This document shows positions 184 to 46,529 of a stretch of DNA of 55,500 nucleotides, one piece after another (within the stretch, counting starts at the first letter, position 1; each line of letters opens with the position of its first letter). The DNA lies in contig NZ_CAMJRK010000001.1 of assembly GCF_946222815.1 (NCBI RefSeq), forward strand, positions 1 to 55,500, written 5' to 3'. Below the pieces are notes generated by a model. The model did no database searches. It was not told where the DNA came from and saw only the letters and a program-made list of their open reading frames with translations. The translations under genes and the position numbers were made by a program. The DNA comes from an uncultured Leuconostoc sp. GTDB taxonomy: Bacteria; Bacillota; Bacilli; Lactobacillales; Lactobacillaceae.

Positions 184-261
184 ATGTTTTAACGATGTAC
201 ACTATTAATTATGGTACACCGTATCTCCTTTTCTTGGGTTTTTAGACACCCACTGTCAACC

Positions 262-1251
262 TTATTTAACGTCGAGTTTTTCGACGTCAGCCACAAATTT
301 TTTCTTAGTTGTATCTGAAATAGTCGCTGTTTCTTCCATACCCGAACGATTTGCAACAAATTCAATGTGCTGTTGCAAATCCGTAAACACCATCGGTGCA
401 TCTCCGCCATATTCGCCATCTAAATTGACTTTTAACTGATCTTGATCCAAAGGTATGATTGCCACTTTATTTGTTTTTTTATAAATCATGTGTGGGTTAT
501 CAATATGCTTGCCACCATTTAACATTTGAGCAACTATTTGTAAAACTTGAGCTAAATTAGATTCTTTGATAATGAGTAAGGTAAACTTACCATCATCTAA
601 TTTAGCATCAGGAACAATGGTCTCAAAACCACCCACAGAATTTGTTAATGCTAAAAAAATCATTGAAATTTTACCAGAATATTCACCAGTGTCATAGGTA
701 ACTTTAGCATTAACTGGTTTTATTCGTGTAATAAGCTCTGTGCCTTTAACAAGATAGGCCAAATAACCGTACAAGGACTTCATCAAAGATGGGACAGCAT
801 ATGTCACCTCACTAATTGTTCCAAGCGCTGCAATGTTCATAAAATACTTTGATATGCCTGCTTGATCAATTTTTCCAATATCCATTTTAATGGTTTCATG
901 CTGAAAAATAATTTTAGCTGCTTCCAGTGGCTCATCACGCGGTAACTTTAACGCACGTGCATAATCATTGGTTGTGCCGGCTGGAATAACAGCCATCATA
1001 GGACGTTTTGGTAATGGTGCTAACCCATTAACGACTTCGTTGATTGTCCCATCACCACCAGCTGCTACAATCAAGTCAAATCCTGCTTCGGCTGCACGTT
1101 GTGCTTCTTTGGCAGCAGACATCGGTTCTGGTGTTGTCGCAAATGCTGACGTTTCATAACCAGCAAGCTCATAGGTATGCAAAATCGCTAGCATTTCCCG
1201 TTTAATTGCCTCACGGCCAGATGTTGGGTTATAAATAATTCGTGCTCTCAT
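262..1251 (-). CDS. dgkB: Diacylglycerol kinase (YegS/DgkB family)
   Basis: NPTSG, GGDGTINEV, PAGTTND and DGE motifs; follows gatCAB. Confidence 0.9.
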   Translation of the reverse strand: MRARIIYNPTSGREAIKREMLAILHTYELAGYETSAFATTPEPMSAAKEAQRAAEAGFDLIVAAGGDGTINEVVNGLAPLPKRPMMAVIPAGTTNDYARALKLPRDEPLEAAKIIFQHETIKMDIGKIDQAGISKYFMNIAALGTISEVTYAVPSLMKSLYGYLAYLVKGTELITRIKPVNAKVTYDTGEYSGKISMIFLALTNSVGGFETIVPDAKLDDGKFTLLIIKESNLAQVLQIVAQMLNGGKHIDNPHMIYKKTNKVAIIPLDQDQLKVNLDGEYGGDAPMVFTDLQQHIEFVANRSGMEETATISDTTKKKFVADVEKLDVK

Positions 1252-1408
1252 TTTAAAGTGTAATATAGCTACTTATAGCTAACGATCACGTTACCGTGTC
1301 ACACTATCCTTTCATAAAACTATGTACACAGGTATAAACCTGTATGAAACATATGCCGTTTATTGTTTATCAACACATTATAAATTGTGACATTAAAATC
1401 ATCAGTAC

Positions 1409-2848
1409 TTAACGTTTAGCTAATTCTTCTAATAACATTTTATTCATGACACCAGGGTTTGCTTGCCCCTTTGACATTTTCATTAATTGACCAATCAGAT
1501 AACCAGTTGCACGATCTTTGCCACCCTTAAAATCCTCAATTGATTGTGGATTATTATCCAAAACCTCAGTAATCCAACCCAATAAGATTGCGGGATCACT
1601 AATTTGTACCAAACCATTCTTCTTAGCAAATGATTCTGGTTCTTCACCTGCCATGATTGCTTCAAAAACTTGCTTGGCTTGTTTTGTTGAAATTGTACCA
1701 GCTTCAATCAACTTAATCATACCAGCCAAGTGCACTGGTGTTAATTGCGTATCCTGTAATTCAATTTGATGCTTATTCATAAAGGCATTGACATCACCAA
1801 TTAAATAGTTTGCTGCACGTTTCGCATCAGCGCCTGCAGCAACTGTTGCATCATAAAAATCAGACATCGCAAGTGTTTGTGTCAATACTTCTGCATCATA
1901 TGCTTCAATACCTAAATCTGACACATAATCACGTTGACGATCCTCAGATGATTTTGGTAATTCATCGGCGACTTTTTGAATCCACGCGTCATCAATCGTG
2001 ATTGGTGCCAAGTCTGGTTCAGGGAAGTAACGATAATCATCCGCACCTTCTTTAACACGCATCAAAATAGTTGATTTAGTTGGTTCATTATATCGACGCG
2101 TTTCTTGTTGAATAACACCACCAGATCGTAACACTTCGGCTTGGCGCTTTTCTTCAAAAATTAAAGCATTACGCACGTAGTTAAATGAATTAATATTCTT
2201 CATTTCAACCTTTGTGCCATACTCAGATGAACCAAATGGCCGAATTGAGATGTTAACATCCGCACGCATTTGGCCTTCTTGCATTTTAGCTTCTGAAATA
2301 CCAGTAAACAAAATAGCTTGTCGTAATTGTTCTAAATAGGCATAAGCTTCCTCGGGAGAAGCAATATCTGGTTCAGAAACAATTTCGATTAAGGGTGTGC
2401 CCTGACGGTTTAAATCAACATAAGAATAGCCATCTGCACCGTGCGTATTCTTACCGGCATCTTCTTCCACGTGCATTTCTTTAATACGGACACGCTTAAC
2501 TGTGCCATCAATCAATGTCACATCTAAATAGCCATTTGTTCCAAGCGGTGTTTGCGATTGCGTTGTTTGATAGGCCTTAGGATTATCAGGATAAAAATAG
2601 TTTTTACGATCCCAACGAATAAATGGTGACACAGTTGCATGTAAAGCAAGTGCAGCACGCATGCCAAATTCTATTGCCCCTTTGTTAGCAACAGGCAAAA
2701 CCCCTGGATAACCAAAATCAATGACATTGGTATTCTCATTAGGTTTATCACCATAATGTACTGGTGACGGTGACATGAGCTTTGAGTTCGTTTGCATTTC
2801 AACGTGGACTTCAAGTCCTATAGTCGTTTCAAAATTTCCTGTTGCCAT
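1409..2848 (-). CDS. gatB: Asp/Glu-tRNA amidotransferase subunit B
   Basis: [31 protein letters not shown] motifs. Confidence 0.98.
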
Positions 2849-2912
2849 AATTTTAGAGCCCTTACTATAACATGATTATATATATTAGTAAAGACGTTTC
2901 CTCCCTCTTAGC

Positions 2913-4379
2913 TTAATATTTCTTAGCAATATTTGGTCGTTGTTCAAACAAACGACTAGCTTGTTCAAACGCATAACCCGTTTGATATACCGTTGCTTCA
3001 TCAAATGGTTTACCAATGATTTGCAAACCAACTGGTAGGCCATCAACAAATCCAGCATTTACGGATAAGCCTGGTAAGCCAGCCAAATTAACTGGAATTG
3101 TCAAGACATCCGCTAAATACATTGCCGTGGGATCATCAATTTCTTCACCCAAACCATAGGCCACAGTTGGTGCTGTCGGCCCAACAATCACATCATAATT
3201 AGCAAACACCTTGTTAAAATCTTCAATTAATAACGTTCTTATTTTTGCTGCTTTTTTAAAGAAGGCATCATAGGCCCCTGCTGACAATGAGAATGTACCA
3301 AGCATAATGCGGCGCTTAACTTCATCCCCAAATCCCTCAGAGCGTGTCTTAATATACAAATCTTCTAAGTTTTTGACATTATCTGCCCTAAAACCATAGC
3401 GGACACCATCATAACGTTGCAAGTTTGAAGAAGCTTCAGAAGACATGATAATATAATACGCAGCGACACCGTATTTGGTGTGTGGCAAGCTAACTTCGTC
3501 AACTGTTGCGCCCATTGCTTCAAGTTGGGCAATGGCTGCTTTAACTGTTGTAGCAACTTTAGGATCAATGCCTTCACCAAAATATTCTTTTGGTACAGCA
3601 ATTTTCAAACCTTTGACATCTCCTGTTAGCTTTGAAGTGAAATCAGGTACATCACGTTTTGATGACGTTGAGTCTTTTGCATCAAAACCAGCAATTGTAT
3701 TTAAAACCAAAGCATTATCTTTAACAGTTCGTGTAAAAGGACCTACTTGATCAAGAGATGAAGCCATTGCGAATAGGCCCCAGCGAGAAACCCGTCCGTA
3801 AGTCGGTTTTAAGCCCACGATACCATTGAATGCTGCTGGTTGACGAATTGAACCACCTGTATCCGATCCCAATGCAAAGGGAACTTGACCGCCAGCAACA
3901 GCTGCGGCTGAGCCACCAGATGACCCTCCGGGAACTTTGGTATGATCCCATGCATTTGCTGTTTTTTTATAGTATGACGTTTCTGTTGAACCCCCCATAG
4001 CAAATTCATCCATGTTAGTTTTACCAACAGAAATTGCGCCTACTGTACTTAGCTTATCAACAACAGTCGCATCATAAACTGGTTTAAAGCCTTCTAAAAT
4101 ATGTGAAGCCCCTGTTGTTTGAATACCATTTGTTGCCAAATTATCTTTTAAAGCTAATGGCAAACCAGACAATATGTTAGAAAAATCCTGTTGTTCATCA
4201 ATTTTTTTTGCTTGTATCAAAGCTTCATCCGAATTTGTTCGAAGGAAAGCTTGCAATTCATTGTCTGTTTGTTCAATATTTTCTATGGTTGCTTGCGTTA
4301 AATCAACAGCAGTAATATCTTTGTTAACTAATTTCTCATGCAAAGAAGTTAAGTCATTATCAAAAAAATTAATTGTCAT
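2913..4379 (-). CDS. gatA: Asp/Glu-tRNA amidotransferase subunit A
   Basis: Amidase signature [34 protein letters not shown]. Confidence 0.98.
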
Positions 4380-4381
4380 GA

Positions 4382-4690
4382 TTACTCTCCCTCACCATCT
4401 AAAATTGCTGGCACTTTAATCAAATCTGCTGCCTCTAGTGGTGCATTTTTTAATAGTGCTTGTTTTTGATGCCAATTATCTGCTACATCTTCACGCAAAT
4501 GATTTACGTTGTCAGTTACCGAATATGTTGGCGCCACACCATCTGTGTTGACTTCACCCAATGTATTAAAAATATTTAAAATATTATCTAATTGAGTTGT
4601 GAATTGCACTAATTCAGTATCATCAAATGCTAGTTTAGCTAAATTAGCAACGTGTGCAACTTCTGATTTTGAAATTGTTGTTTCAGACAT
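4382..4690 (-). CDS. gatC: Asp/Glu-tRNA amidotransferase subunit C
   Basis: [17 protein letters not shown] motifs; directly upstream of gatA. Confidence 0.95.
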
Positions 4691-4824
4691 TTACTTACTC
4701 CTTTAAGCGTGTTTGTTGTTTAACTACATGTACAACGCACGTAACATATATACTTATTTATTTTACCATAACTCTGACGCTCTCTACGCTTGCATTTTAA
4801 TGATATTCGCGTATAATTAAATTT

Positions 4825-4910
4825 GTTGTAAAAACAACATGACCAAGTACTTTGTTTAGCGTCTCACCGTCGCTTCACACAGTCTTTGGCGACATTTTAG
4901 AAAGGTGGAT
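4825..4910 (+). promoter_or_regulatory. rpsO 5' leader, probable S15 autoregulatory RNA
   Basis: Promoter TTGCAT(4789)-17 bp-TATAAT(4812), then ~90-nt leader with CCAAG..CTTTGG and AGCG..CGCT pairings; expected position for the Firmicutes S15 leader. Confidence 0.55.
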
Positions 4911-4916
4911 ATGATT

Positions 4917-5186
4917 ATGGCCCTTACACAAGAACGTAAGAACGAAATCATCAATGAATATGCTCGTCACGAAGGCGATACTGGTTCAGCTGAAGTACAA
5001 GTCGCAGTTTTAACTGCTGACATTAACGAGTTGAACACACACATGGCAATTCACAAGCATGATTTCCACTCACAACGTGGTTTGATGAAGAAGATTGGTA
5101 GCCGTCGTAACTTATTACGTTACCTCCGCAACACTGATATTCAACGTTACCGTGAATTAATCCAACGCTTAGGTTTGCGTCGTTAA
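4917..5186 (+). CDS. rpsO: 30S ribosomal protein S15
   Basis: [34 protein letters not shown] at 4901-4908 favours the ATG at 4917. Confidence 0.98.
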
Positions 5187-5487: not shown

Positions 5488-5495
5488 CAACAAAT

Positions 5496-9843: not shown

Positions 9844-10101
9844 ATGATAAAATTAACAAAGCTAGAAAAACATGATATTAGCCGAATGGCTAATCCTAAA
9901 TACTCTGATTTTGCTGACATTTATGTCCCAGATGCCAACGCCGCTTCTAAACAAATGATGGCAAAATACGTCATTGAAACCTATGATTTAGGTGAACTTT
10001 ATGGTGTCAAATCAACTGTATCACATCACATATTAGACTTTACTTATTTGAATGGTGAACAGCAATCACGGATTACTGGTAAAATTGAATACGATGCATA
10101 A
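9844..10101 (+). CDS. Hypothetical protein (85 aa)
   Basis: ORF with extended -10 immediately upstream and a terminator downstream. Confidence 0.7.
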   Translation: MIKLTKLEKHDISRMANPKYSDFADIYVPDANAASKQMMAKYVIETYDLGELYGVKSTVSHHILDFTYLNGEQQSRITGKIEYDA

Positions 10102-12234: not shown

Positions 12235-13068
12235 CTATGCCTCGCGTTTATAAATTTCTTTTGCGTAATTACCAGCAGTGACTATAATTGGATCACCGTT
12301 TTTAAGATTTGTATCAACATGTAGCAAAGACGTAAAGCGATCAAGAAGACGTGTTGCTGATCTACCTTCAGCAAACACAGCTGTACCAACAACTGTCCCA
12401 TCAAATTCACTAACCAGTGTCTGCATACCTTGAATGGTCCCGCCAGCTTTCATAAAATCATCAACGATTAAGACACGAGATCCTGTACGTAACGAACGAC
12501 GAGATAATTCCATTTTTTCAACACGTTTTGAAGATCCTGTTAAATAGTTCACAGAGACTGTTGGTCCCTCTGTTACTTTAGCATCATCACGCACAATCAC
12601 AAAAGGAACATTTAATTGCTCGGCAACTGCTTGTGCTAGTGGCACACCTTTAGTAGCTGCCGTCATAACTGCATCAATGTTGTCACGTAAATACTGTGTG
12701 GCAATCAATCGACCCACTTGACGTAAAATATCTGGGCGACCTAACAAATCTGACAAATAAACATATCCGCCCGGTAAGACACGTGTTTCATCGTTGACAT
12801 ATTGACGTATTTCTTCAATAAAGCTTTTTGCTTCGTCCTCAGCCATAAATGGTATAAAACGTGCGCCACCCGCAGCGCCAGGGACAGTTTCTAGTAAACC
12901 TGTGCCGCGCTCTTGAAATGTTCTTTTTAAAATGGATAAATCCTCTGAAATAGAAGACTTGGCAGAATCATACCGTTTAGCAAAATAGGACAAAGAAATG
13001 AGTGTACGAGGGCGCTCAAGCATGTAGCGCGCCATATCAACAAGGCGATCCGAACGACGTGTTTTCAT
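12235..13068 (-). CDS. purR: Purine operon regulator PurR
   Basis: MKTRRSDRL, AKSSISEDL, PRPP motif VLIVDDFMKAGGT; purR-glmU synteny; conserved start at 13068. Confidence 0.96.
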   Translation of the reverse strand: MKTRRSDRLVDMARYMLERPRTLISLSYFAKRYDSAKSSISEDLSILKRTFQERGTGLLETVPGAAGGARFIPFMAEDEAKSFIEEIRQYVNDETRVLPGGYVYLSDLLGRPDILRQVGRLIATQYLRDNIDAVMTAATKGVPLAQAVAEQLNVPFVIVRDDAKVTEGPTVSVNYLTGSSKRVEKMELSRRSLRTGSRVLIVDDFMKAGGTIQGMQTLVSEFDGTVVGTAVFAEGRSATRLLDRFTSLLHVDTNLKNGDPIIVTAGNYAKEIYKREA

Positions 13069-13157
13069 GATGTATAAACGTGCGATAAACAAATCAGCAC
13101 GTATTCTCCTTTATAAATATTAATATTTAATATTAATTATAACATTTTTAAAACAGT

Positions 13158-13170
13158 AACGTTCGGTATT
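13158..13170 (-). promoter_or_regulatory. PurBox overlapping the -35 region of the purR promoter
   Basis: AATACCGAACGTT (consensus AWWWCCGAACWWT, 1 mismatch); TG-T-TATAAT -10 at 13144-13136. Confidence 0.7.
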
Positions 13171-13961
13171 TAAGCATTTTTTTGAAACTGCCAAACAGAG
13201 ACTAAATAAATTAAAACTTCAATTATTGCAATAAAAAAACTTGCTGGTAAATTTGTTAGATAGGCCAGTGCTAAGCCAGACCAAGTCCCAAATAAAGCAA
13301 ATATGACAGCTAGACCCATTAATCTTGTCGTAACTGTTACATAGTATTTAGCACTTGCAGCAGGTAAAGTCACCAATACAAAAATTAATAATGAGCCAAC
13401 CAGTTGCGAAGCAATACTAACAGACAAAGCAATCATAACCAAAAAAATATAGCGTACTGCTTTTTGCTGTCTATTTTGTAAAAAAATGCCAGCTTCATCA
13501 AATGACAACTGTCGCAATGAACGATAATTGATTAGCAACGTCACAATAACAAAAATTGCTAACACGATTAGCAATAACAAATTTTCTCGACTAATTCCTA
13601 ACACGGATCCAAATAAAATGCCAGTAGCTGCTGTCGTACTTGTATGTCCAAGTGCTAAAAATAAAATTCCTAATCCGATGGCCAATGCCGAGATTGCGCT
13701 AGTGACATTATCCCGTTTTGTATAACTGGATTCTAGTGCTCCAATCGCTAATGAAGCCCCGCTTGTTGCAACCATCATACCAAGTAATGCAGGCCAACCA
13801 GCAAATAAACCAAAAGCCGCACCAGCAAATCCAATCTCACTTAAAGTATGTGTTAAGAAAGTATAATTACGTGCGACCGCAAATGTGCCGACAATTCCCG
13901 CAACAATACTGACAATCGTTCCTGCCATAAAAGCATTTTGCATAAAGTCATAACTAAACAT
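13170..13961 (-). CDS. Metal (Zn/Mn) ABC transporter permease
   Basis: ABC-3 family: FMQNAF, HTLSEIGFAG, ILFGSVLGIS; start MFSYDF after GAGGT. Confidence 0.9.
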   Translation of the reverse strand: MFSYDFMQNAFMAGTIVSIVAGIVGTFAVARNYTFLTHTLSEIGFAGAAFGLFAGWPALLGMMVATSGASLAIGALESSYTKRDNVTSAISALAIGLGILFLALGHTSTTAATGILFGSVLGISRENLLLLIVLAIFVIVTLLINYRSLRQLSFDEAGIFLQNRQQKAVRYIFLVMIALSVSIASQLVGSLLIFVLVTLPAASAKYYVTVTTRLMGLAVIFALFGTWSGLALAYLTNLPASFFIAIIEVLIYLVSVWQFQKNA

Positions 13962-14658
13962 GATGTACCTCATCTTCTGCATGAATATGCGTCATTTGCG
14001 TTGTTAGAGACTGTAATTCAGCCATTTCCCCTTGAGTCACCTGACCATTTTCAAAAAATAAGTAGCCATCGGCAAACTGGGTCACTAATTCTAATTCATG
14101 TGTGATAAATAAAACGGTTAAATGCTGTGTTTCTTGTAACCGCTTAACAGTCTGTAATAATGTCACTTTATGCTCATGGTCTAAGCTTGATGTAGATTCA
14201 TCTAATATTAACAAATCAGGTTGCTGCACTAACGCTTGCGCGACAAATGCACGTTGCTTTTGTCCACCAGATGCTAATCCTAAACGTTTGTCGCTCATAT
14301 CTGCTAAATCCATTAATTTTAGTGCTGATCTTACCGCTGATTTTTCACGTTTATTCAGCCACAACCGCCACCCTTTATTATAATTTAAGGCCACAAATTC
14401 AGCTATGTTTAAAGGGAAGTCACGTGTGATATCACGAAATTGTGGTACAAAGCCAACACGATTTGTATTTAATTTTAATTCACCTTCAATTTGCTGATTT
14501 TGCCCAATCAGTGCTTTGACAAAACTTGTTTTCCCAGCACCATTCTCACCTAATAACGCAAAAAATCTCCCCGCTGGTATATCAATATTAGCGTGAGCTA
14601 GTATGCTTTTTTCACCATAGTGAATGCCAAAGTCCTTTGTTTGTATGATGCCCATCAT
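13954..14658 (-). CDS. Metal ABC transporter ATP-binding subunit
   Basis: GENGAGKT, SGGQKQR, LLILDES, ITHE. Confidence 0.92.
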   Translation of the reverse strand: MMGIIQTKDFGIHYGEKSILAHANIDIPAGRFFALLGENGAGKTSFVKALIGQNQQIEGELKLNTNRVGFVPQFRDITRDFPLNIAEFVALNYNKGWRLWLNKREKSAVRSALKLMDLADMSDKRLGLASGGQKQRAFVAQALVQQPDLLILDESTSSLDHEHKVTLLQTVKRLQETQHLTVLFITHELELVTQFADGYLFFENGQVTQGEMAELQSLTTQMTHIHAEDEVHHV

Positions 14659-15509
14659 TTACCACTTTCTACTGGTTTAAAAACTGCCTGCAACTGTTCA
14701 ACAAGCGTCAACTGCCATTGCCATACTTTTTGATTTGATGGTAGCACCTGATTAAAGGTAATTACTGGTATGTTCGCATTTTTTGCTAACGTCACCAAAT
14801 GTCGATCTCGATCAGATTGATCCTGACTTGCAGTCAATACAAAGCGAATTTTTTTGTCACCTATTCGCTCGGCTATTTCATCAAATTCTTCATTTGAAAT
14901 AGATTCAATATGCGCTATATCTGAAGTATAGTTTAGCTGTGTCATGAAAACCTGTTGCGCGTTATTTGTTGCAATATAATGCACATTTTTTTCTTGTTTT
15001 AAAGCTTGAATGCCATCAGATAGTGCTTGATTTTGATCTGTTAATTTCTGACTATTGCTTATATAATTATTGCGATTTCCAGGGTCTAAATCGCTTAGCA
15101 AGTCAGACAATCGTGAAATTGTTTTCAAAATAATTTCTGGACTTAACCAATAATTGGCATAAGTTTGATTTTTAACTACATCACTGGCTACTAACAATTT
15201 AGAATGTAACTTTAAATTACGACGTTGCGTTAATAACTGGCTTTGGTGGCTGTCGGTAACGAGTACTTCTGCGTTTTTAAAAATTGTTTTTTCATTATTT
15301 TGTGTTAAATTACCTGAAAATAATGATACATGCCCGTTTTTAGTCACTACCGCTTGTGCTATTTGTTGATAAGCAACATTATCTGTCACGATTTGAACAG
15401 GCACATGATCTGACGGACGCGATGTAACTGTCATTTTCATGCCAATTAAAAAAATGCCAATTGGTATCAGAGAAATCGTTAAAATAGCATAAAACACTTG
15501 TTTTTTCAT
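14655..15509 (-). CDS. Metal ABC substrate-binding protein (ZnuA/TroA-like, degenerate)
   Basis: Operon position, N-terminal TM, YWLSPE and LDPGNRNNY motifs, AKNANIPVI; canonical His ligands absent. Confidence 0.7.
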   Translation of the reverse strand: MKKQVFYAILTISLIPIGIFLIGMKMTVTSRPSDHVPVQIVTDNVAYQQIAQAVVTKNGHVSLFSGNLTQNNEKTIFKNAEVLVTDSHQSQLLTQRRNLKLHSKLLVASDVVKNQTYANYWLSPEIILKTISRLSDLLSDLDPGNRNNYISNSQKLTDQNQALSDGIQALKQEKNVHYIATNNAQQVFMTQLNYTSDIAHIESISNEEFDEIAERIGDKKIRFVLTASQDQSDRDRHLVTLAKNANIPVITFNQVLPSNQKVWQWQLTLVEQLQAVFKPVESGK

Positions 15510-15558
15510 AATTTAAATTATCTCACAACTACAAAAAAAGCCCAATAGGGCATTTTAG

Positions 15559-15792
15559 TTATTCAGCAAAAGTAATATCAATATTATTCGTTAAAATGTC
15601 GGTATAACTGTATGATGCACGTTCAAACTTAGCTTCCTCATCTAGTTCAACAACAAACAAAGAAGGAAATGTTGACCGCAATACACCAGTTCGCTCTGTA
15701 ATCTTTTTGCGACCAGCTTGTGCAACCACTGTAACGGCTTCGCCAACATGGGCGTCGAGTTTAATCTTAATGTCTTGCAAACTACTTGGCAT
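15559..15792 (-). CDS. veg: Veg family protein
   Basis: AGRKK..FPSLFVVELD..SYSYTDILT; start MPSSL after AAAGGTGG. Confidence 0.93.
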   Translation of the reverse strand: MPSSLQDIKIKLDAHVGEAVTVVAQAGRKKITERTGVLRSTFPSLFVVELDEEAKFERASYSYTDILTNNIDITFAE

Positions 15793-15895
15793 TTTTATAC
15801 CACCTTTCGTGAAAAACTTATTTAAGTATAACACAAATAAGCTTCAATTACAAATCAGGCTGTATAATCAGACCAAATCATGAAAAAATATACAG

Positions 15896-16783
15896 TTACT
15901 GCGTTAACTTTTGCTCACGTAAAGCCAGATATAATGTTGTCAGTTGTGTTAAATCTAAGCGCTCTGCACGTATAGAAGGATCAATATCTGCTTGCTTGAG
16001 CGCTGCTGTTATTTTTTCCTTAACATCTATATCTTTACCATACGTTTGCAACATGTTATTCCAAAGACTTTTGCGTCGGTGTGAAAAACTACCTTTAATA
16101 ACACCGAACAATCGCTCTGGTTGGTCAACCACAATTTGAGGAACTAACGGTGTCAGTTTGACTACCGCTGATTCAACCTTAGGCGCTGGATTAAACGCTG
16201 TTGCCGGTACTTCTATGGCTAACTGAGCATTTGCAAAATATTGAATCGTTAGCGTTAAGACACCATAAGCTTTTGTGCCAACATTAGCATTCAAACGATC
16301 AGCGACTTCACGTTGCATCATGACCACAATATTATCCCAAGTAATGTTAGTGCGCAGTAACTGCATCAAAATTGGTGTCGTTATGTAGTAAGGTAAGTTG
16401 GCCACTACTTTGACATGAGCATTGTCACCAAATTCTTCGGCAATAATTTGAGGCAAGTTCATCTCTAAAATGTCACCGGCAATGACCTTAACATTATCAT
16501 AATCTTGTAATGTTTCCCCTAACACGTTGACCATCTGTGTATCGATTTCAAAGGCTAGGACCTTTTTTGCTTCACGCGCTATTTGTTCTGTTAAAGAACC
16601 AATACCTGGCCCAATTTCGATAACATAATCTTCATTTGTAATATTTGCAGTATCCACAATACCGTGTAACACATCTAAATCAGTTAAAAAATTTTGTCCA
16701 AATTTTTTCTTAGCATGTAACCCATATGCGTTTAAAATCGCTTGTGTTCGCGTTGGATCTGCAATATCTATTTTCTCTACCAT
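15896..16783 (-). CDS. rsmA: 16S rRNA dimethyladenosine transferase
   Basis: KKFGQNFL, EIGPGIGSLT, ANLPYYITTP. Confidence 0.97.
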   Translation of the reverse strand: MVEKIDIADPTRTQAILNAYGLHAKKKFGQNFLTDLDVLHGIVDTANITNEDYVIEIGPGIGSLTEQIAREAKKVLAFEIDTQMVNVLGETLQDYDNVKVIAGDILEMNLPQIIAEEFGDNAHVKVVANLPYYITTPILMQLLRTNITWDNIVVMMQREVADRLNANVGTKAYGVLTLTIQYFANAQLAIEVPATAFNPAPKVESAVVKLTPLVPQIVVDQPERLFGVIKGSFSHRRKSLWNNMLQTYGKDIDVKEKITAALKQADIDPSIRAERLDLTQLTTLYLALREQKLTQ

Positions 16784-16787
16784 TTAG

Positions 16788-17348
16788 TCATTTACCTTTC
16801 AATACTGTCAAAATTTGTGCCTGTGTGATCCCGAATTGTTGCACACGCTTTAACAGCTGCTTGCCATTTGTATAACCAATATGCAATGATTCACCGACTA
16901 TTTCACGCCGCTTTCGAGCATTTTGACCATTTAATAAACCATTTTTTAATAAAAATTGTTGATCTATATCCGTCACTATATCAATTTTAGGTGTCATAAC
17001 CGCTGCTAATGATTGTCGTAATATACTGGGTTCCGCATGCTCCACACCAAGCGATTTATGCCAATTATCTTTCTGCGGGCGGCCTTCGCTTTGCGTAATA
17101 TATGCCTGCTTGGCTGAAGGTACAGCTGTTGTCATAATTTGACGAATCCGTTGACCATTAAAATCAGGATCCGTTAAAATAATAATGCCTCGTGTTTTGG
17201 CTGCATGTTGCGCACGCCTGATAGCATCATTATTAACAGCACTACCACCCGTTTCAATTGTGTCAGCAATCACTGCACGCGCTAAATTTTGTGTATCAGA
17301 TTTACCTTCAACAACAATCATTTCATTAATTTGTGGACGTTCAGTCAT
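16788..17348 (-). CDS. rnmV: Ribonuclease M5
   Basis: TOPRIM VVEGKSD, TDPDFNG, SLGVEHA, GYTNGKQL. Confidence 0.95.
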   Translation of the reverse strand: MTERPQINEMIVVEGKSDTQNLARAVIADTIETGGSAVNNDAIRRAQHAAKTRGIIILTDPDFNGQRIRQIMTTAVPSAKQAYITQSEGRPQKDNWHKSLGVEHAEPSILRQSLAAVMTPKIDIVTDIDQQFLLKNGLLNGQNARKRREIVGESLHIGYTNGKQLLKRVQQFGITQAQILTVLKGK

Positions 17349-18138
17349 GATTTAAGAAAAGGCGATGTGCATTTTGACGTGTGATAGATGATAGTTCTTC
17401 CGGTGTCATATTCAATGTATCCGCCAACGAATCAACGATATACTTGACAAGTGCCGGTTCATTATCTTTCCCTCTAAATGGTGTTGGTGCTAAATATGGT
17501 GCGTCAGTTTCAACTAATAAGCGATTTAATGGTACAGACTTGGCTGCTTCACGGACATCTTCAGCCTTTTTAAATGTGACTACACCACTAAACGAGATAT
17601 GCATGCCTAACGCAACAAATGCTGCTGCTTGTTCTGGCGTACCGGAAAAACTATGCATAACACCTTTAGTGACACCGCTATCTTTCAACATCGCATACAC
17701 ATCTTCAAACGCATCACGATTATGAATAATAACTGGTAAATTGTATTTTTTAGCTAGTGCTAGATGTGTTTGAAACGCTTTTTTTTGAACATCATGTGCT
17801 GTCGTTTCCCAATAATAATCTAACCCAGTTTCGCCGACACCAACAACTTTAGCTTGTTGCAGTTGCTTTTCAAGTTTTTCAGCGGCAACAGCATCAAAAT
17901 CGCCAGTGTCTTCTGGCTGAAATCCTAATACTGCATAAATATTATCATGTGCTTGTGCAATTTCTAAGGCGCGTTCATTGCCTTGTGCATCGTAACCGAC
18001 AATATTCATTTCCATTACGCGAAACTCATGCGCTCGACCAATATAAGCTGGCACATCATGAAATAATTTATTATCGTTTAAATGTGTATGTGTATCATAA
18101 CTATCTGCAGGTGTTTTTGTTAAATCGTAAATTGCCAT
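17341..18138 (-). CDS. tatD: TatD family deoxyribonuclease
   Basis: DTHTHL, GETGLDY, HSFSG, ETDAPYLAP; tatD-rnmV-rsmA synteny. Confidence 0.95.
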   Translation of the reverse strand: MAIYDLTKTPADSYDTHTHLNDNKLFHDVPAYIGRAHEFRVMEMNIVGYDAQGNERALEIAQAHDNIYAVLGFQPEDTGDFDAVAAEKLEKQLQQAKVVGVGETGLDYYWETTAHDVQKKAFQTHLALAKKYNLPVIIHNRDAFEDVYAMLKDSGVTKGVMHSFSGTPEQAAAFVALGMHISFSGVVTFKKAEDVREAAKSVPLNRLLVETDAPYLAPTPFRGKDNEPALVKYIVDSLADTLNMTPEELSSITRQNAHRLFLNHD

Positions 18139-18328
18139 ATTTTAAAATGTGCAAAGCACCTTATGCGTCAACGTTTTTCATAGAAAAATATTACTATTGT
18201 TACACAACGTCTGGCAAATAGTACTCTGAACTATTCCTCCATTTTTTAGATATTTAGGGTGCAATCAATAAATCATGCGATAAATGACTGTCATTAAGAA
18301 AAAAAGCCGCGACGCGACTTACAATGAA

Positions 18329-18745
18329 TTATTCTACTTTCGGTGCAGCCGCTGGCGTGAAGTTTTTCAACAAACCATTAACAAACTTACGACTTTCTTC
18401 ATCTGAGAAAGTCTTAGTTAATATCAAAGCTTCATCAATGGACACTTTATAAGGTACCAACTTATTTAATAACTCATATATCGCCAATCGTAAAATAATA
18501 AGATCAGCTTTATTAATACGATTAATTGCCCAGCCATTTGCTAAATGAGCAGAAATTTGTTCGTCTAATTCTGCTTTTGTACCCAAAACACCATTAACTA
18601 ATCGTGGCAAATAATCATCATAATCTTTGCCTTCCAAAACAATATCATACAGTTTATCGATGTTATTGCTTTTTGGATCTTTTTCTAACGCAAACAGCAC
18701 TTGAAAAGCTGCTTGACGTGATTCGTGCCGTGTCAAATTAGACAT
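18329..18745 (-). CDS. nusB: Transcription antitermination factor NusB
   Basis: RHESRQAAFQVLF, ILRLAIYEL, KFVNGLL. Confidence 0.95.
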   Translation of the reverse strand: MSNLTRHESRQAAFQVLFALEKDPKSNNIDKLYDIVLEGKDYDDYLPRLVNGVLGTKAELDEQISAHLANGWAINRINKADLIILRLAIYELLNKLVPYKVSIDEALILTKTFSDEESRKFVNGLLKNFTPAAAPKVE

Positions 18746-30789: not shown

Positions 30790-31494
30790 TTAGAATAGTT
30801 TTCCAATGCCATAATGTATTGCAATCGTAAGCAAACCAATAATAATATTACGAAGCATTGCACGCTTGACCAAACCATTAGACATTTTAGCACTCAACAA
30901 ACCTGTTAAACCAACAGCCACTACCGTAGCTGCTATCGTGGCAATAAATTGGTAACGTGTCGGTGACAAAATTAATGCTGCTAATGGAAATACACCCCCA
31001 ATTGCTGCACTAAATAGTGATGCCCAAGCCGCAGACCAAGGATTCATATAATGACCTAAAGTGATATCATACTTAGTACTCAACATTGTTTCCAAGGGTT
31101 TTTTATTCAGTAATTCATCTGCAATGGCTTTAGCCGTTGATCGTGTTACCCCACGGTCAACATAAAAATTTTCAACTGACTGATGTTGTCTAGCAAAATC
31201 TGTTCTTAATAGTTCACGCTCTTGTTCAACAACAACCTTTTCGCTGTCTGACTGCGAACTCACCGAAGCATATTCACCCGAAGCCATTGATAAGGCGCAG
31301 GCCATTAAATCAGCTAAACCTGCAATGAAAATAGCAAAATTGTTTGTTGTTGCCGCTGCAACCGAAAATAGCACACCAACAACTGTTAAAATACCATCAT
31401 TTGAACCCAAAACGCCAGCACGAATAGCATTTAACCGTTCATCCATTGTCGCTTGTTCTTTTTTGACGTGTTCTTTTTTAAGCTTTATATCCAT
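30790..31494 (-). CDS. VIT1/CCC1 family Fe/Mn transporter (copy 2)
   Basis: RAGVLGSNDG, SMASGEYASVSSQ. Confidence 0.92.
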   Translation of the reverse strand: MDIKLKKEHVKKEQATMDERLNAIRAGVLGSNDGILTVVGVLFSVAAATTNNFAIFIAGLADLMACALSMASGEYASVSSQSDSEKVVVEQERELLRTDFARQHQSVENFYVDRGVTRSTAKAIADELLNKKPLETMLSTKYDITLGHYMNPWSAAWASLFSAAIGGVFPLAALILSPTRYQFIATIAATVVAVGLTGLLSAKMSNGLVKRAMLRNIIIGLLTIAIHYGIGKLF

Positions 31495-31542
31495 GTTTTT
31501 AACTGTGCTTATAATTTTTAATTAACTAAAAGCACCCTCCTC

Positions 31543-38101: not shown

Positions 38102-38305
38102 ATTATCCCCTTATTGCTCATATTATAACAAAAACCAGCTTTCAAACCAATTAATTTACCTGTCTAACCATTGCTTTATTTAAAAAAATGTTACTTACCC
38201 AAAAAAAGCTACGCCATTAATCAAAATAGCGTAAAATAAGATAGTAAAATTTATTTGAAAGGAACAACAAAATCAACAGTGATGATTTTGTTTACACTTT
38301 TTATC

Positions 38306-38974
38306 ATGTCTGAAATCAGCACACATCCGATTCAAGAACGCCTGCCAATTGCCTTACTATTGGCTACCAATTCTGGTTTCGTTGATGCCTATACTTTTCA
38401 GTATCACGGCGAACGCTTTGCCAGCCTGCAGACGGGTAATATTATTCAAGCAGGTATCTCACTCGCCAGAGGCCAATTTAGTTATTCTACAAGTTTTCTC
38501 ATGCCAATCTTGTTTTTTTTGTTAGGGGCAGCCTTTAACAATGTTCTAAAACACACAGTCAAAGCCAAAAGATTATCCACACAACAGCATAGTTTGATGA
38601 TAGAAATAATTGGTATTAGCCTCGTTGTCTTTATTCGTACACAGATATCTAGTACCACATTCATTACCTTATTATCTTTTTTCTTAGCTATGCAACTAGA
38701 TGCCTTTCCAAAAGTGAAAGGTTTACCGTTTACTAGTGTCATGTCAACAGGTAATTTACGTAATGTCGGTGCTAATTTAATCACTTATTTTTATACAAAA
38801 AATAGAACAAATTTACACAATGCTAATTTATTTTCATTAATTATTCTAGCATTTTTATTTGGCGCCTTTTTATCAGCGCTAATGTCAACTTATCTTAATC
38901 ACTTCACATTACTTGGTTCGAGTGTTATTTTAATCACTATTTTCGGTTTACTTTTTGATTATTCAAAAAAGTAG
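38306..38974 (+). CDS. YoaK / DUF1275 family membrane protein
   Basis: SGFVDAYTF, ASLQTGN, TSVMSTGNLR; probable start MSEIS at 38306. Confidence 0.88.
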   Translation: MSEISTHPIQERLPIALLLATNSGFVDAYTFQYHGERFASLQTGNIIQAGISLARGQFSYSTSFLMPILFFLLGAAFNNVLKHTVKAKRLSTQQHSLMIEIIGISLVVFIRTQISSTTFITLLSFFLAMQLDAFPKVKGLPFTSVMSTGNLRNVGANLITYFYTKNRTNLHNANLFSLIILAFLFGAFLSALMSTYLNHFTLLGSSVILITIFGLLFDYSKK

Positions 38975-42527: not shown

Positions 42528-42567
42528 TCAACCACCATATCTATTGGTTTAAAGAAGGAGTCAATAA

Positions 42568-43647
42568 ATGAGTAACCCCATAATTTCACTAAATCATATC
42601 GATGTCACTTTTTATCAAAAAAAGCGTACCATTGAAGCTGTCAAAGACGTTTCCATCACAATCAATCGTGGCGATGTTTACGGTATTGTCGGTTATTCCG
42701 GTGCCGGCAAATCAACATTAGTACGTGTCATTAACTTATTACAAGAACCAACTAATGGTTCTGTTGTGGTTAATGATGAAACTTTTTTTCAAGCCGATAA
42801 AGAAACAAATAAAAACATACGCATTAAACCAACCGCTCTACGTCATCGTCGTCGTAAAATTGGTATGATTTTTCAACATTTTAATTTATTAAATGAACGC
42901 ACCGTAACTGAAAACGTGGCTTTTGCTTTACAACATAGTAAGTTAACTCAAGATCAAAAAAAGGTTAAAGTCACAGAACTACTACAATTAGTTGATTTAA
43001 CAGACCGTGCTGAACAATTTCCGTCACAACTATCAGGTGGTCAAAAGCAACGTGTTGCCATTGCACGTGCACTAGCAAATGATCCTGAAATTTTAATTTC
43101 TGACGAAGCAACTTCTGCATTAGATCCTAAAACAACCAACCAAATTCTAAGTTTATTAAAAAAACTCAATGAAGAACTTGGCTTAACAATTGTTTTAATC
43201 ACACATGAAATGCAAGCCGTTAAAGAAATTGCCAATAAAGTTGCTGTCATGCAAGATGGTGAAATTATTGAACGTGGCTCATTGCTTGATATATTTGCTC
43301 AGCCAACGCAACAGCTAACTAAAGAATTTATTGAAACAGCAACAAATATTGACAAAGCTATTGCAACGATTTCTTCTCAACCCTTGGTAAAAAATCTTAA
43401 TGATAACGAACTATTTATCCGTTTGTCTTATGTCGGTGCTACAACAGATGAGCCCTTAATTGCTGGTTTATTTCGTGATTTCCAAGTCACGGCTAATATT
43501 TTATATGGCAATGTTGAAATTTTACAAAATACGCCCGTTGGTTCATTACTTGTTATTCTATCGGGTACAGATGAGCAAATTAAGGCAGCAACATCAACTT
43601 TAGCCGATCATCATGTTGAAATTGAAATATTAAAAGGCGGTAAATAA
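42568..43647 (+). CDS. metN: Methionine ABC transporter ATP-binding protein
   Basis: [27 protein letters not shown]-terminal NIL domain. Confidence 0.95.
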
Positions 43648-43649
43648 TT

Positions 43650-44345
43650 ATGATAAAATGGTTTTCAGATACATTCCCAAACGTCGTTTATCAAGGCTGG
43701 ACTGGTGATACAGGCTGGTGGACTTCTATTGTTCAGACATTTTATATGACTTTTTGGTCTGCCATTTTTGGTGGCATTCTTGGTTTAGTCTTTGGTATTG
43801 GTTTAATTATTACAGCCCCAAATGGCATTGCACCAAATAAACTGCTATTCTGGTTCTTTGATAAAGTTGTGTCAGTTTTTCGTGCAGTACCCTTCATCAT
43901 TTTATTAGCGTTCATCGCACCTTTTACGAAATTAATTGTTGGCACTCAAATTGGAACAACCGCAGCTTTGGTTCCGCTAGCGCTTGGTGTCTTCCCATTT
44001 TACGCACGTCAAATACAAGTTGCGTTAGCTGAAGTGGACAGTGGTATTGTTGAGGCTGCTCAGTCGGTAGGTGCCTCATTTTGGGATATTGTCTTTGGCG
44101 TTTATTTACGTGAAGGCCGTTCTGAGATTGTCCGCGTGTCAACCGTTACTTTGATTAGTTTAATCGGTTTAACAGCTATGGCTGGTGCTATAGGGGCTGG
44201 TGGACTAGGTAACATGGCCATTGCTTATGGTTACAATCGCTTTGCCACAGATACAACACTTGTCGCAACATTACTCGTTTTAATTTTTGTCCTTGTTGTT
44301 CAACTTATTGGTGATTATTTGGCCAAGAAACTCAGCCATAAATAG
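43650..44345 (+). CDS. metI: Methionine ABC transporter permease
   Basis: FRAVPFIILL, EAAQSVGA, GAIGAGGLG. Confidence 0.93.
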   Translation: MIKWFSDTFPNVVYQGWTGDTGWWTSIVQTFYMTFWSAIFGGILGLVFGIGLIITAPNGIAPNKLLFWFFDKVVSVFRAVPFIILLAFIAPFTKLIVGTQIGTTAALVPLALGVFPFYARQIQVALAEVDSGIVEAAQSVGASFWDIVFGVYLREGRSEIVRVSTVTLISLIGLTAMAGAIGAGGLGNMAIAYGYNRFATDTTLVATLLVLIFVLVVQLIGDYLAKKLSHK

Positions 44346-44365
44346 CCAATCCCATCTTTTATAAA

Positions 44366-44412
44366 TAAAAATACCTCGAAAATCTAGTGTCATAGATTTT
44401 CGAGGTATTTAT
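44366..44412. terminator. Terminator after the met operon
   Basis: AAAATACCTCGAAAATCTA..TAGATTTTCGAGGTATTT. Confidence 0.85.
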
Positions 44413-44535
44413 TTAGGCTAAATAATTCATTATTCACTCAATGTCACACCAAAAAGCGTATCAATATTCCGATTAACAACACGCTATGCCATCAAATCAT
44501 TCGTTTTTTCAATACAAACACAATCGTATGTGAAT

Positions 44536-45243
44536 TTACCGTTCTAATGTAAATTCAAAACGTTCGCCAACATAATATGAATGCACATATTCAAATGGTC
44601 GTTCATTTTGGTCAAATGATACTTGGCGCACATTCAAAATAGCATCCCCACGTCTAATTTGCAAAAGTTCTGACAAACGTTCATTCGCCAACGTAGCTGA
44701 AATTGTCTGTTCTGCACGTCCTGGTTGAATACCTGCTTTTTCTAAGGTCACATACAAAGATTCTGTTAAATCATGGCGTTCAAAGCCACTAATTAATCTT
44801 GCCGGCAATGTTGTTCTCTCAAGTAAGATAGGTTCATTATTACCCATCCGTAAACGTTCCATAATCAAAACATCATCATCATCTGCTAATTGCAAGTGCG
44901 TAATTTCAGAGGCAGATGGTGATGTTATTTTATAACTGACTGTTTGCGTTTTTGAAACGCGACCTGTATTAGCCATTAGCTCTGTAAAACTTGTCATGCC
45001 TAATGCACGCTCAGATACTTTTTTCTCCGCAACATAAGTCCCAGAACCAATTTTCCGTTCTAATAAGCCCTCATCAACAAGTGTTTGAATCGCTTGTCGT
45101 AACGTCATACGCGACACATTAAAAGTTTCTGACAACTCACGTTCAGCAGGTAAACGCTTCTGAGATTGCCACTCTCCGGCTTCAATACGCGCTTTTATTT
45201 GATTATGAATTTGAATGTAACGTGGTATTGCGGGTTTTGTCAT
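44536..45243 (-). CDS. GntR/HutC (UTRA) regulator, NagR-like
   Basis: LPAERELSETFNVSRMTLRQA, GSGTYV, UTRA domain; follows nagA. Confidence 0.9.
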   Translation of the reverse strand: MTKPAIPRYIQIHNQIKARIEAGEWQSQKRLPAERELSETFNVSRMTLRQAIQTLVDEGLLERKIGSGTYVAEKKVSERALGMTSFTELMANTGRVSKTQTVSYKITSPSASEITHLQLADDDDVLIMERLRMGNNEPILLERTTLPARLISGFERHDLTESLYVTLEKAGIQPGRAEQTISATLANERLSELLQIRRGDAILNVRQVSFDQNERPFEYVHSYYVGERFEFTLER

Positions 45244-46388
45244 TAATTTTTCCGTGCAAAACGACGTCCAAATGAATAAGTCGCCTGTAATTGCATATCT
45301 TCCTTGTTAAATATATTAAAGTCGGCGTCTTTACCAGCTGATAAATCACCTTTTTGGGTTAAACCAAACTCACGTGCCTGATTGACCGAAGTCATTTGCA
45401 CAGCATCATGAATGTCAGCCGATGTGAACTGTTGTATATTACGAAATGCATCATCATACGCTAAAACTGAACCAGCTAAATGGCCATTTTCAAGACGTGC
45501 CTGTTTATCCTGAACCATCACCTTTTGTCCACCAAGTTCGGACACACCGTTGCCTAAACCTTCAGCACGCATAGAATCTGTTACGAGTTCTAACTGATGT
45601 GCACCCTTTAGACGAAAAGCAATTTCCAACATGTCAGGTACAATATGAAAACCATCAGCGATTAACTCACCCGTTATTGACTCTTCTAGCATACCATGTC
45701 CAGTTACTCCTGGTTCGCGATGATGTAGTGGCCTTTGTGCATTGTATAGATGCGTTATATGTGTTGCTCGTGAATGTAGTAATTGTGCACGCGTGGCATT
45801 TGAATGACCAATTGAAGGGATAATATGGTGCTGTAACATAAATTCTTCAAAGTCTGGTATCCCACCATTTTCGGGTGCATAAGTCACTAATCGAATGCGC
45901 TCACCAGATAATGCATACCACTTTTTAAGCAATTCTGTGTTAGGGTCAATAATATATTCTTCTGGTTGTGCACCCATAAATACTTTGTTGATAAATGGCC
46001 CTTCCAAATGAATACCCTGAATCACCGGATTAATTTTAGCTACTTCGTTGATAGTCACCAAAGCCCGTTCGATGTTTTCAGGTGATTGCGTCATTGTTGT
46101 TGGAAATAACGATGTAATCCCTTCAGTAACCATTTTGTTGACCATATCATTGAGCTTTTCGGCATCACCATCCATGGTATCCAGACCATATCCACCATGT
46201 TTATGAACATCAATAAAACCTGGTACAACAATTTTTCCTGTTGCCTCTGCAATCAATTCATCATCGTCTTGTGGCGTCAAATCAACCATATAGCCAACAT
46301 CACAAATCACATCTGTGAAGCGTATATACGCTTCTGCCATATGTTTTGAACCTGTGTAAAGATCAATATTTTTTAATAATTTAGCCAT
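45243..46388 (-). CDS. nagA: N-acetylglucosamine-6-phosphate deacetylase
   Basis: PGFIDVHKHG, HLEGPF, THLYNAQ, ADGFH, LAGS; homology suggests start MAKLL at 46388 rather than 46499. Confidence 0.95.
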   Translation of the reverse strand: MAKLLKNIDLYTGSKHMAEAYIRFTDVICDVGYMVDLTPQDDDELIAEATGKIVVPGFIDVHKHGGYGLDTMDGDAEKLNDMVNKMVTEGITSLFPTTMTQSPENIERALVTINEVAKINPVIQGIHLEGPFINKVFMGAQPEEYIIDPNTELLKKWYALSGERIRLVTYAPENGGIPDFEEFMLQHHIIPSIGHSNATRAQLLHSRATHITHLYNAQRPLHHREPGVTGHGMLEESITGELIADGFHIVPDMLEIAFRLKGAHQLELVTDSMRAEGLGNGVSELGGQKVMVQDKQARLENGHLAGSVLAYDDAFRNIQQFTSADIHDAVQMTSVNQAREFGLTQKGDLSAGKDADFNIFNKEDMQLQATYSFGRRFARKN

Positions 46389-46529
46389 GATATAAATATT
46401 AGCAATCACGTGCCACTCATCGTGAGTCACAAAACAGTGGTTACCATTCCTCCTATTTATTCTTAACCTCATTATAATTGGTATAGACCGATTGTGCAAA
46501 TTTAATCTTCATCAAACTATTAGCACTTA

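Follow-up and report, generated by a model that had tools for sequence, protein, structure and literature searches.

Candidate hairpin-bridged ribosome-binding sites recur on the chromosome of a Leuconostoc species

Here, we describe an unusual arrangement of translation start regions that recurs in a stretch of 55,500 nucleotides (nt) from an uncultured Leuconostoc sp. (Lactobacillaceae; assembly GCF_946222815.1, contig NZ_CAMJRK010000001.1, positions 1 to 55,500; the window hereafter). In eight genes, labelled rlmD, dgkB, gatB, purR, tatD, VIT2, yoaK and nagA, the start codon is preceded at a long distance by a strong Shine-Dalgarno (SD) sequence, after which come a locally closed RNA structure and a short linker running to the ATG. 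This SD-hairpin-ATG architecture is real and non-random, and it occurs above chance. With fair confidence, we read the modules as hairpin-bridged ("split") ribosome-binding sites (RBSs) of the kind described for genes 25 and 38 of bacteriophage T4, which would here be used chromosome-wide; this reading is built on sequence comparison.

SD-hairpin-ATG modules in the window and in the genome

According to a first-pass annotation of the window, these eight genes have no close SD and carry a strong one 37-97 nt upstream, with a stem that begins 0-4 nt after the SD, a linker of 5-13 nt before the ATG and an effective spacing of 6-15 nt once the stem is looped out. Our measurements returned the same values in all eight cases (Table 1; all coordinates are window positions, with seven modules on the minus strand and yoaK on the plus strand). 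A start-proximal SD was found in none of the eight, and the linkers are A/U-rich and nearly without G. The sole SD match near an ATG among them, the 4-nt word AAGG in gatB, is paired in the 3' arm of the stem. A comparison of spacer folding with shuffled controls, which had been put forward as a check, favoured the arrangement as well: all eight spacers fold better than their dinucleotide shuffles (z-scores of -1.9 to -4.4, with 0-8 of 200 shuffles equally stable). Two caveats concern folds that include the SD, in which the SD of yoaK is able to pair with part of the linker (GAAAG/CUUUU) and that of tatD is partly paired. The tatD module, with the longest leader, is the weakest and least certain of the eight cases.

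In dgkB, the closed structure consists of an outer stem (GUGUG/CACAC) around a CACG-GUAA-CGUG hairpin and a second, variable hairpin. The sequence of this inner hairpin, CACGG(U/C)AACGUG with a GNRA-like loop, is near-invariant in most Leuconostoc species, unlike the other inserts, and it may be a specific recognition element. Another small hairpin stands 4 nt ahead of the SD of rlmD; it is kept with altered stem letters (GCG.../...CGC), even in species without a hairpin between SD and ATG.

Table 1. Positions of the eight modules, followed by other features of the window (dG, predicted folding free energy in kcal/mol; z, z-score against dinucleotide shuffles; distance, SD end to ATG in nt)
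Feature	Position	Strand	SD	Structure	Linker	ATG	dG	z	Distance
rlmD-labelled gene (runs off the window)	181..231	-	AAAGGAG 225-231	hairpin 192-222	TAAAACAT 184-191	181-183	-10.0	-2.5	41
dgkB	1249..1313	-	GAAAGGA 1307-1313	closed two-hairpin structure 1257-1305	1252-1256	1249-1251	-14.1	-2.1	55
gatB	2846..2905	-	GGGAGG 2900-2905	hairpin 2858-2895	TCTAAAATT 2849-2857	2846-2848	-11.8	-4.4	51
purR	13066..13112	-	AAAGGAG 13106-13112	hairpin ACGUGC/GCACGU 13078-13102	UUAUACAUC 13069-13077	13066-13068		-3.0	37
tatD	18136..18240	-	GGAGG 18236-18240	83-nt closed structure 18149-18231	AUUUUAAAAU 18139-18148	18136-18138	-21.2	-2.6	97
VIT2 (second VIT-family gene)	31492..31542	-	GAGGAGG 31536-31542	hairpin 31505-31535	AGUUAAAAAC 31495-31504	31492-31494		-3.1	41
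yoaK (DUF1275)	38257..38308	+	GAAAGGA 38257-38263	hairpin 38266-38292	UACACUUUUUAUC 38293-38305	38306-38308		-2.3	42
nagA	46386..46454	-	AGGAGG 46449-46454	structure 46400-46446	AUAUUUAUAUC 46389-46399	46386-46388		-1.9	60
Small hairpin ahead of the rlmD SD, GGGUgucuaaaaACCC	~236-251	-							
Inner hairpin of dgkB	~1284-1305	-							
Leaderless-type gene	9844	+							
purR PurBox-like word AAATACCGAACGTT preceding TGTTATAAT	~13136-13171	-							
Gene similar by eye to that at 9844	15509	-							
tatD promoter-like words	18217..18188	-							
Gene similar by eye to that at 9844	28405	+							
Gene similar by eye to that at 9844	30742	-							
GntR/UTRA regulator gene	44536-45243								
nagA TATAAT	~46471-46476	-							
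nagA TATAAT together with the preceding word AATCGGTCTATACCAAT	~46471-46493	-							
tRNA gene (Rfam)	47159-47229	+							
Thiamine pyrophosphate (TPP) riboswitch (Rfam, 75.8 bits)	48039-48127	+							
Gene cluster downstream of the TPP riboswitch	48277..								

PurR, TatD, NagA and DgkB were named by NCBIfam, and the DUF1275/YoaK protein and the two VIT-family proteins by Pfam. GatB carries the label of the first-pass annotation, and its N-terminus is identical in all same-genus orthologs; the label of rlmD has the same source and belongs to a 61-codon fragment without a Pfam match. The NCBIfam profile alignments begin at residue 12 of the 285-amino-acid (aa) purR open reading frame (ORF), residue 14 of tatD and residue 39 of the 418-aa nagA ORF. 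Judged by these alignments, which begin at or near the module ATGs, the proposed starts are supported. Protein N-termini are conserved from the module ATG onward at every ortholog locus printed, and the in-frame TTG that some callers use as the purR start is absent from other species. It had been argued that start callers stumble at such genes, and the public 90% clusters indeed give conflicting lengths for PurR (277/285 aa), NagA (381/388/407/409 aa), YoaK (222/230/231 aa), DgkB (329/334/335 aa) and VIT2 (234/242/218 aa); TatD entries have 265 aa, except for shorter, fragment-like ones. The RefSeq-named entries of the clusters are the short forms, which begin at the module ATGs.

Genome-wide statistics were obtained from the genome of the window (designated G000), a 1.52-Mb assembly of 145 contigs in which 1375 genes were called with a crude codon-usage caller. 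An aligned SD spacing of 4-10 nt (median 7 nt) is normal in this genome, and 371 of the 1375 called genes have no SD match of at least 4 nt at any candidate start. Distal SDs of at least 6 nt, located 14-130 nt upstream, are present in 56 of 319 no-SD genes versus 70 of 979 genes with a proximal SD. We counted a spacer as closed when it closes on itself with 4-16 unpaired nt remaining and a dG of -6 or lower. By this criterion, 71% of the 48 spacers behind distal SDs of no-SD genes are closed; the share falls to 28% at distance-matched random positions (n = 673) and to 38% behind the distal SD-like words of proximal-SD genes (n = 42).

Two scans approached the modules from opposite ends. In the hairpin-first test, hairpins were chosen without regard to any SD, on the condition that they are closed and end 5-16 nt ahead of the first ATG; 212 of 311 genes without a proximal SD carry one. 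Among these no-SD genes, SD words of at least 5 nt lie 0-4 nt before the 5' base of the hairpin in 34 cases, compared with 3, 6, 7, 1, 2, 1, 8 and 3 in the other 5-nt bins; the profile of proximal-SD genes is flat (9 at 0-4 nt versus 0-11 elsewhere). The strict SD-first scan required a strong intergenic SD with no start codon and long ORF directly after it, and its candidates were chosen to lack a proximal SD. It found 56 clean SD-hairpin-ATG modules at 53 starts among the 1375 genes. As a control, the SD position was moved by 8-16 nt, which gave 16, 18, 19, 23, 17 and 11 modules (mean 17.3) and leaves an excess of ~39. The strict scan replaced a first SD-first scan that had a high background from AGGTG and AAAGG words in coding sequence, and an inclusive scan was dropped as unspecific, having flagged 173 genes, many of them at internal ATGs of genes with a good SD. 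The original estimate that roughly one in seven genes uses the arrangement is right within the window (8 of ~57) and does not extend to the genome, where the rate is about 3-6% of genes, because there are 53 candidates (~39 above the control) and the scan, which depends on crude gene and start calls, recovers only four of the seven window cases visible to it.

In the set of 53 starts, the distance from the aligned SD end to the stem is 0-4 nt and the linker is 6-14 nt long, mostly 8-12 nt. The unpaired sum has a median of 12 nt, the structured span ranges from 13 to 109 nt (median 42 nt), and the dG from -6.4 to -33.3 kcal/mol. Linkers of the hairpin-first set are A/U-rich, with an A at -3 in 31 of 40. 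Genes with a split SD are not decaying, as their median codon score (0.248 in the 53-start set) is slightly above that of strong normal-SD genes (0.217). The inserts were described at the outset as unrelated in sequence, and this is borne out by the absence of any other genome match for 38 of 40 hairpins, while the other two have a single 17-nt match; repeat elements of the REP/MITE type were rejected on the same count. Cross-matches among the hairpins are mostly 8-10 nt long; the 20 listed include a single 12-nt match at 92%.

Could common SD-like words, foldable AT-rich spacers and wrong start calls produce such modules by chance or artefact? SD-like 5-mers 14-130 nt upstream are indeed present in 24-39% of genes, the lenient fold criteria give a high background (17.3 of 56) and the inclusive scan also flagged internal ATGs. 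However, the SD positions peak at the hairpin base and the shift controls stay far lower, 8/8 spacers beat their shuffles, protein N-termini are conserved from the ATG, and SD, structure and linker are kept in 105 of 140 ortholog instances despite saturated silent sites. With these results, an origin by chance or artefact is extremely improbable.

Conservation within and beyond Leuconostoc

We compared the genomes of 21 Leuconostoc species, using one rule for clean modules at seven loci and counting gatB by eye. Both purR and nagA are cleanly bridged in 21/21 species, the latter with 15 different stem starts. For dgkB, 15 of 19 loci are clean, one is borderline and three have a plain spacing of 12-13 nt. 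The tatD module is clean in 14/21 species, with a total distance of 31-99 nt, and a normal close SD is seen by eye in 6/21; yoaK is clean in 13/21, borderline in one, without a detected SD in one and canonical in six. At VIT2, 11 of 18 loci are clean and the other seven have a close SD by eye. At rlmD, 10 of 19 are clean (eight different stem starts), and several loci have a weak SD only, or none. By eye, 11 of 18 same-genus gatB loci are bridged by an SD, a variable hairpin and a conserved linker, and 7/18 have a normal SD. The clean instances at the seven loci other than gatB add up to 105 of 140. The first-pass annotation had suggested a lineage-wide mode of initiation, and this was supported in so far as orthologous sites across a lineage keep the layout. 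The non-bridged instances mostly have a plain SD 4-9 nt (aligned) from the same ATG, with few borderline ones. The SD is retained in every bridged instance, and the starts of the closing helix vary, with 7-15 distinct ones per locus.

At four-fold sites, most of the more distant species share 0.26-0.5 identity with G000, a level close to saturation, so that unconstrained leader sequence would be randomised. Hairpin identity is at or above four-fold-site identity in most comparisons. The idea of a hypervariable insert was dropped for this reason: ordinary divergence, constrained in structure and geometry, is enough to account for the turnover, and no special variability mechanism is required. 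On these alignments, the layout is conserved at orthologous sites while the stem sequence turns over.

In a midpoint-rooted tree of PurR+TatD+NagA, a clade of six species (G015, G016, G017, G018, G031, G032) has hairpins only at purR and nagA, and at dgkB in one species, with plain SDs at gatB, tatD, VIT2 and yoaK. G032 has split-site candidates of its own elsewhere in its genome. The clade of the other fifteen species has hairpins at most of the eight loci, and in the inner subclade around G000 all eight are bridged in seven of eight species, yoaK being borderline in G009. The layout occurs more widely in the section of the genus to which G000 belongs, a gradient that is partly ascertainment because the loci were chosen in G000. 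When the strict scan was applied to 400-kb samples of other genomes, the counts, all of them small, were 10 versus 3.0 in the control for G013, 9 versus 5.5 for G032, 6 versus 3.2 for G088 and 1 versus 2.0 for G071, which makes enrichment in Leuconostoc suggestive. The hairpin-first scan on these samples was set aside owing to tiny counts and wrong starts (e.g. VIT2 and yoaK of G013).

Outside the genus, purR is bridged in five more genera among further family genomes, with unrelated stems, and canonical in ten others. Among named records, it is bridged in 10/10 from Leuconostoc, in 9/9 from Fructobacillus, and also in Convivina and Eupransor. The stems are again unrelated, and the canonical layout is found in Weissella, Oenococcus, Lacticaseibacillus, Bacillus and Listeria. 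For genes that are bridged in some species, other Leuconostoc species and other families have a normal SD at an aligned distance of 4-9 nt from the same ATG. Judging from this distribution, the trait dates far back at two loci, at purR in the Leuconostoc-Fructobacillus-Convivina-Eupransor group and at nagA throughout Leuconostoc.

Transcript context and competing explanations

The genomic surroundings of the modules are of two types. In 16 of the 53 genome-wide modules, the SD lies at most 30 nt after an upstream same-strand stop, and these modules are thus internal to operons. Within the window, the gatB module is intercistronic (gatA stop, 9 nt, then the SD), and so is that of VIT2, whose SD directly follows the stop of the first VIT gene. 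Other modules have promoter-like words close by. At purR, the SD is preceded at ~23 nt by a conserved extended -10 box (TGTTATAAT), and a PurBox-like CCGAAC site stands farther upstream; at yoaK, ~19 nt separate the SD from a conserved TAAAAT box on its upstream side; and at nagA, a conserved TATAAT has an operator-like site (GGTCTATACC) just upstream. The GntR/UTRA regulator gene is a neighbour of nagA, its ATG overlapping the nagA stop. A consensus promoter scan of 12900-18500 gave no excess of sites over shuffles (26 versus 20.6) and missed the extended -10 box of purR.

A -10 (TATAAT-like) box that ends 5-9 nt before the start was found in 43 of 355 no-SD genes of G000, compared with 2 of 663 SD genes. 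The no-SD genes with such a close box look like a sizeable class of leaderless mRNAs, judged by box position; the gene at 9844 is of this type, and three more genes of the window resemble it by eye (Table 1).

The main rival to split RBSs is a stability or insulation module similar to STAB-SD, in which an SD-bound 30S ribosomal subunit together with the stem would block 5'-to-3' decay by RNase J1 or shield the cistron, and the AUG would be used SD-free through the open A/U-rich linker. STAB-SD is described as established in Bacillus thuringiensis cry3A and as proposed in other Gram-positives (excerpts of PMC4113751). It would also account for the strong conservation of the SD. The SDs of purR, nagA and yoaK lie ~10-25 nt after the conserved -10 box and hence near the predicted 5' end, and SD-free initiation is at hand in an organism in which 371/1375 genes have no SD. 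However, 16/53 modules lie within 30 nt of an upstream stop in operons, gatB and VIT2 being plainly intercistronic, and a block to decay needs neither the coupling between SD and hairpin (0-4 nt) nor that between hairpin and AUG (mostly 8-12 nt). Moreover, the eight window cases have no start-proximal SD (the 53 candidates were selected to lack one), and in canonical orthologs the same SD is a working RBS. A STAB-SD-like module fits the promoter-proximal cases and not the intercistronic ones or the tight geometry, and we regard it as unlikely.

The hairpins might instead be regulatory switches that respond to a protein, a small RNA, a ligand or temperature and act on a split RBS or an SD-free start, the layout marking merely where such a site does not block the ribosome. 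The near-constant inner hairpin of dgkB in most species would suit this explanation, as would the presence of regulators or regulated genes (purR, nagA) among the eight and the range of folding energies (-6 to -33 kcal/mol), with which temperature responses would differ by gene. Yet none of the leaders matches an Rfam family at gathering score, the only Rfam matches of the window being the TPP riboswitch upstream of the 48277.. gene cluster and the tRNA gene. No sequence is common to the inserts of the genome, and at each locus they differ from species to species, which argues against specific ligands or proteins for most hairpins. SD and AUG are no more sequestered than in normal genes: pairing is 0.38 for the SD and 0.43 for the AUG, compared with 0.37 and 0.45 in canonical genes, and SD sequestration of the thermometer or riboswitch type was rejected on these values. 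Taken as the general explanation, switches appear rather improbable. Terminators were also rejected by eye, since the 3' flank is A-rich and has no U run; this inspection did not include a terminator scan over all modules.

Another explanation is that the SD serves a short upstream ORF, whose terminating ribosomes reinitiate at the nearby ATG. In G000, a GTG frame in the purR leader ends in a TGA that overlaps the ATG, the rlmD leader contains GTG UAC CAU AAU UAA, and 15 of 21 purR leaders have an upstream ORF ending at most 15 nt from the ATG. However, a start codon at a suitable aligned spacing (4-12) is present in 42 of 107 bridged leaders, which equals the shuffled expectation (0.29-0.42), and none is found in 15 dgkB leaders or in the two gatB leaders scored. 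The purR ORF is missing in the six-species clade and different in other genera, and its GTG belongs to the conserved stem. Upstream-ORF coupling was rejected on the shuffled expectation and the lack of conservation between clades, and we consider it very improbable.

Proposed mechanism, precedents and significance

If the modules are split RBSs, initiation could proceed as follows. The mRNA would offer a normal SD to a canonical 16S rRNA tail; such a 3' tail (...GGATCACCTCCTTTCT) was found in 5/5 relatives searched, and the G000 assembly lacks the 16S 3' end. A stem structure of 13-109 nt, closed locally, would begin 0-4 nt behind the SD, and from it an unpaired A/U-rich linker, mostly 8-12 nt long, would run to the AUG. 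By joining the ends of the structure, folding would bring the SD to within ~10-14 unpaired nt (aligned) of the AUG, as compared with a normal median of 7. Both signals might then be bound by a single 30S subunit, the SD through the anti-SD tail and the AUG in the P site, while the hairpin rests at the platform; in that case initiation would depend on hairpin folding. We infer that these AUGs are served by the distal SD because it is absolutely conserved, because SD and hairpin base as well as hairpin and AUG are coupled, and because the same SD is a normal RBS elsewhere; the need for folding is likewise suggested by conservation and geometry.

Several observations weigh against this reading. 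To begin with, initiation driven by the distal SD is deduced from sequence and predicted folds. With a median of 12 nt, the unpaired sum exceeds the normal median spacing of 7 nt, and the width of the helix adds more, so that geometry alone is no proof of productive bridging; and since 371/1375 genes have no SD, the organism can initiate SD-free and a distal SD need not initiate. Column-wise covariation at purR is modest. RNAalifold returned no consensus pairs from a MAFFT alignment of the 21 leaders, because the six-species clade is one column out of register, and two pairs of the named stem changed on both sides, a number that 388 of 500 shuffles reach. Of the cells in the named stem, 74.1% pair, compared with a shuffle mean of 67.0% (0/500 reach the observed value) and 57.4% at a slide of +1, and the covariation score is 0.208 versus 0.128. 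Given the register shift between clades, the count anchored at the stem base, which gave the 7-15 distinct helix starts per locus, is more telling than column-wise covariation. At tatD, promoter-like words (TTGCCA-18-TAATAT) stand between SD and ATG, within the leader structure; by eye, they recur in close species that share the long leader. With respect to RNA, the library index gave small shares only (0.13 or less), and the library contigs of relatives that span the gatA-gatB leader (four runs, 90-99% likeness, one run spanning 100-4736) are weak and show occurrence in the libraries of relatives, neither 5' ends nor single transcripts. The crude gene and start calls, the choice of the loci in G000 and the small 400-kb samples noted above count on the same side.

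The T4 precedent had been correctly named in the first-pass annotation. In excerpts of a T4 review (PMC3014915), a structure is described as cutting the SD-AUG spacing from 22 to 5 nt in gene 38 and from 27 to 11 nt in gene 25; for both, this was shown by mutation and probing, and destabilising mutations lower initiation (Nivinskas et al. 1999; Malys and Nivinskas 2009, as described there). The modules resemble the T4 sites in that the SD, at 22 and 27 nt in T4 and at 37-97 nt here, stands beyond the ~15 nt taken as the limit of direct use, and in that a stem-loop restores a usable spacing, 5 and 11 nt in T4 and a predicted 6-15 nt here when counted from the end of the SD. Like gatA-gatB and the VIT pair, one of the T4 sites (genes 26-25) is intercistronic, and close relatives retain the structure whereas distant ones lack it. 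On the other hand, T4 offers two isolated phage genes, whereas tens of chromosomal housekeeping genes per genome are concerned here; the inserts are longer (13-109 nt) and sometimes branched; and the layout is kept across species, at purR across genera, with full turnover of the stem sequence. Function in T4 was shown by mutation and probing, according to the same excerpts, while the present modules are known from sequence and predicted folds.

In the excerpted account, the STAB-SD of cry3A does not direct initiation (Agaisse and Lereclus 1996; Mathy et al. 2007, via PMC4113751). As in the present modules, an orphan SD would stand at a large distance ahead of the start codon of a Firmicute gene and owe its conservation to pairing with 16S rRNA. 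It differs in that no hairpin clamp to the AUG is required, whereas tight AUG geometry, no proximal SD and an operon-internal position in 16/53 are found here. The cry3A gene reportedly keeps its own start-proximal RBS beside the STAB-SD. The split RBS of Escherichia coli thrS and other structured mRNAs on the 30S platform illustrate that a hairpin in the binding region is tolerated while the flanking single strands are bound. In thrS, however, the hairpin serves a repressor as its operator and the SD has remained beside the AUG, unlike the displaced SD of our modules.

In the literature search, the layout was found only in the T4 review (PMC3014915), and most subscription journals and supplements lay outside the search, so an earlier description elsewhere is possible. 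No description of the layout was seen among the matching Leuconostoc papers that were listed, as judged by title and abstract start. Within the literature searched, the mechanism was previously known from two phage T4 genes, and what would be new is a T4-type mechanism as a chromosome-wide, lineage-conserved habit.

On a broader and much more tentative reading, which we put forward as doubtful, the hairpin-split RBS might be a regular, heritable initiation mode for some 50-90 genes per genome in Leuconostoc and for a few old loci in the wider Leuconostoc-Fructobacillus group. The hairpin would dock on the 30S platform beside the SD-anti-SD helix and translation would rise with its stability, so that the hairpins could act as fast-evolving, gene-specific expression dials and possibly as "inverse thermometers" that favour low-temperature translation in these cold-tolerant food bacteria; the gain of a hairpin between SD and AUG would be a common tuning route.

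For genome annotation, the modules matter in that SD-adjacent start prediction gives conflicting calls at split-RBS genes. If the split-RBS reading is true, such sites would no longer be two phage curiosities but a general and evolvable way to start translation, and the modules would provide a natural set of more than 100 sequence variants from which rules on distance, stability and linker could be drawn. The design of gene expression in Leuconostoc could also employ such modules.

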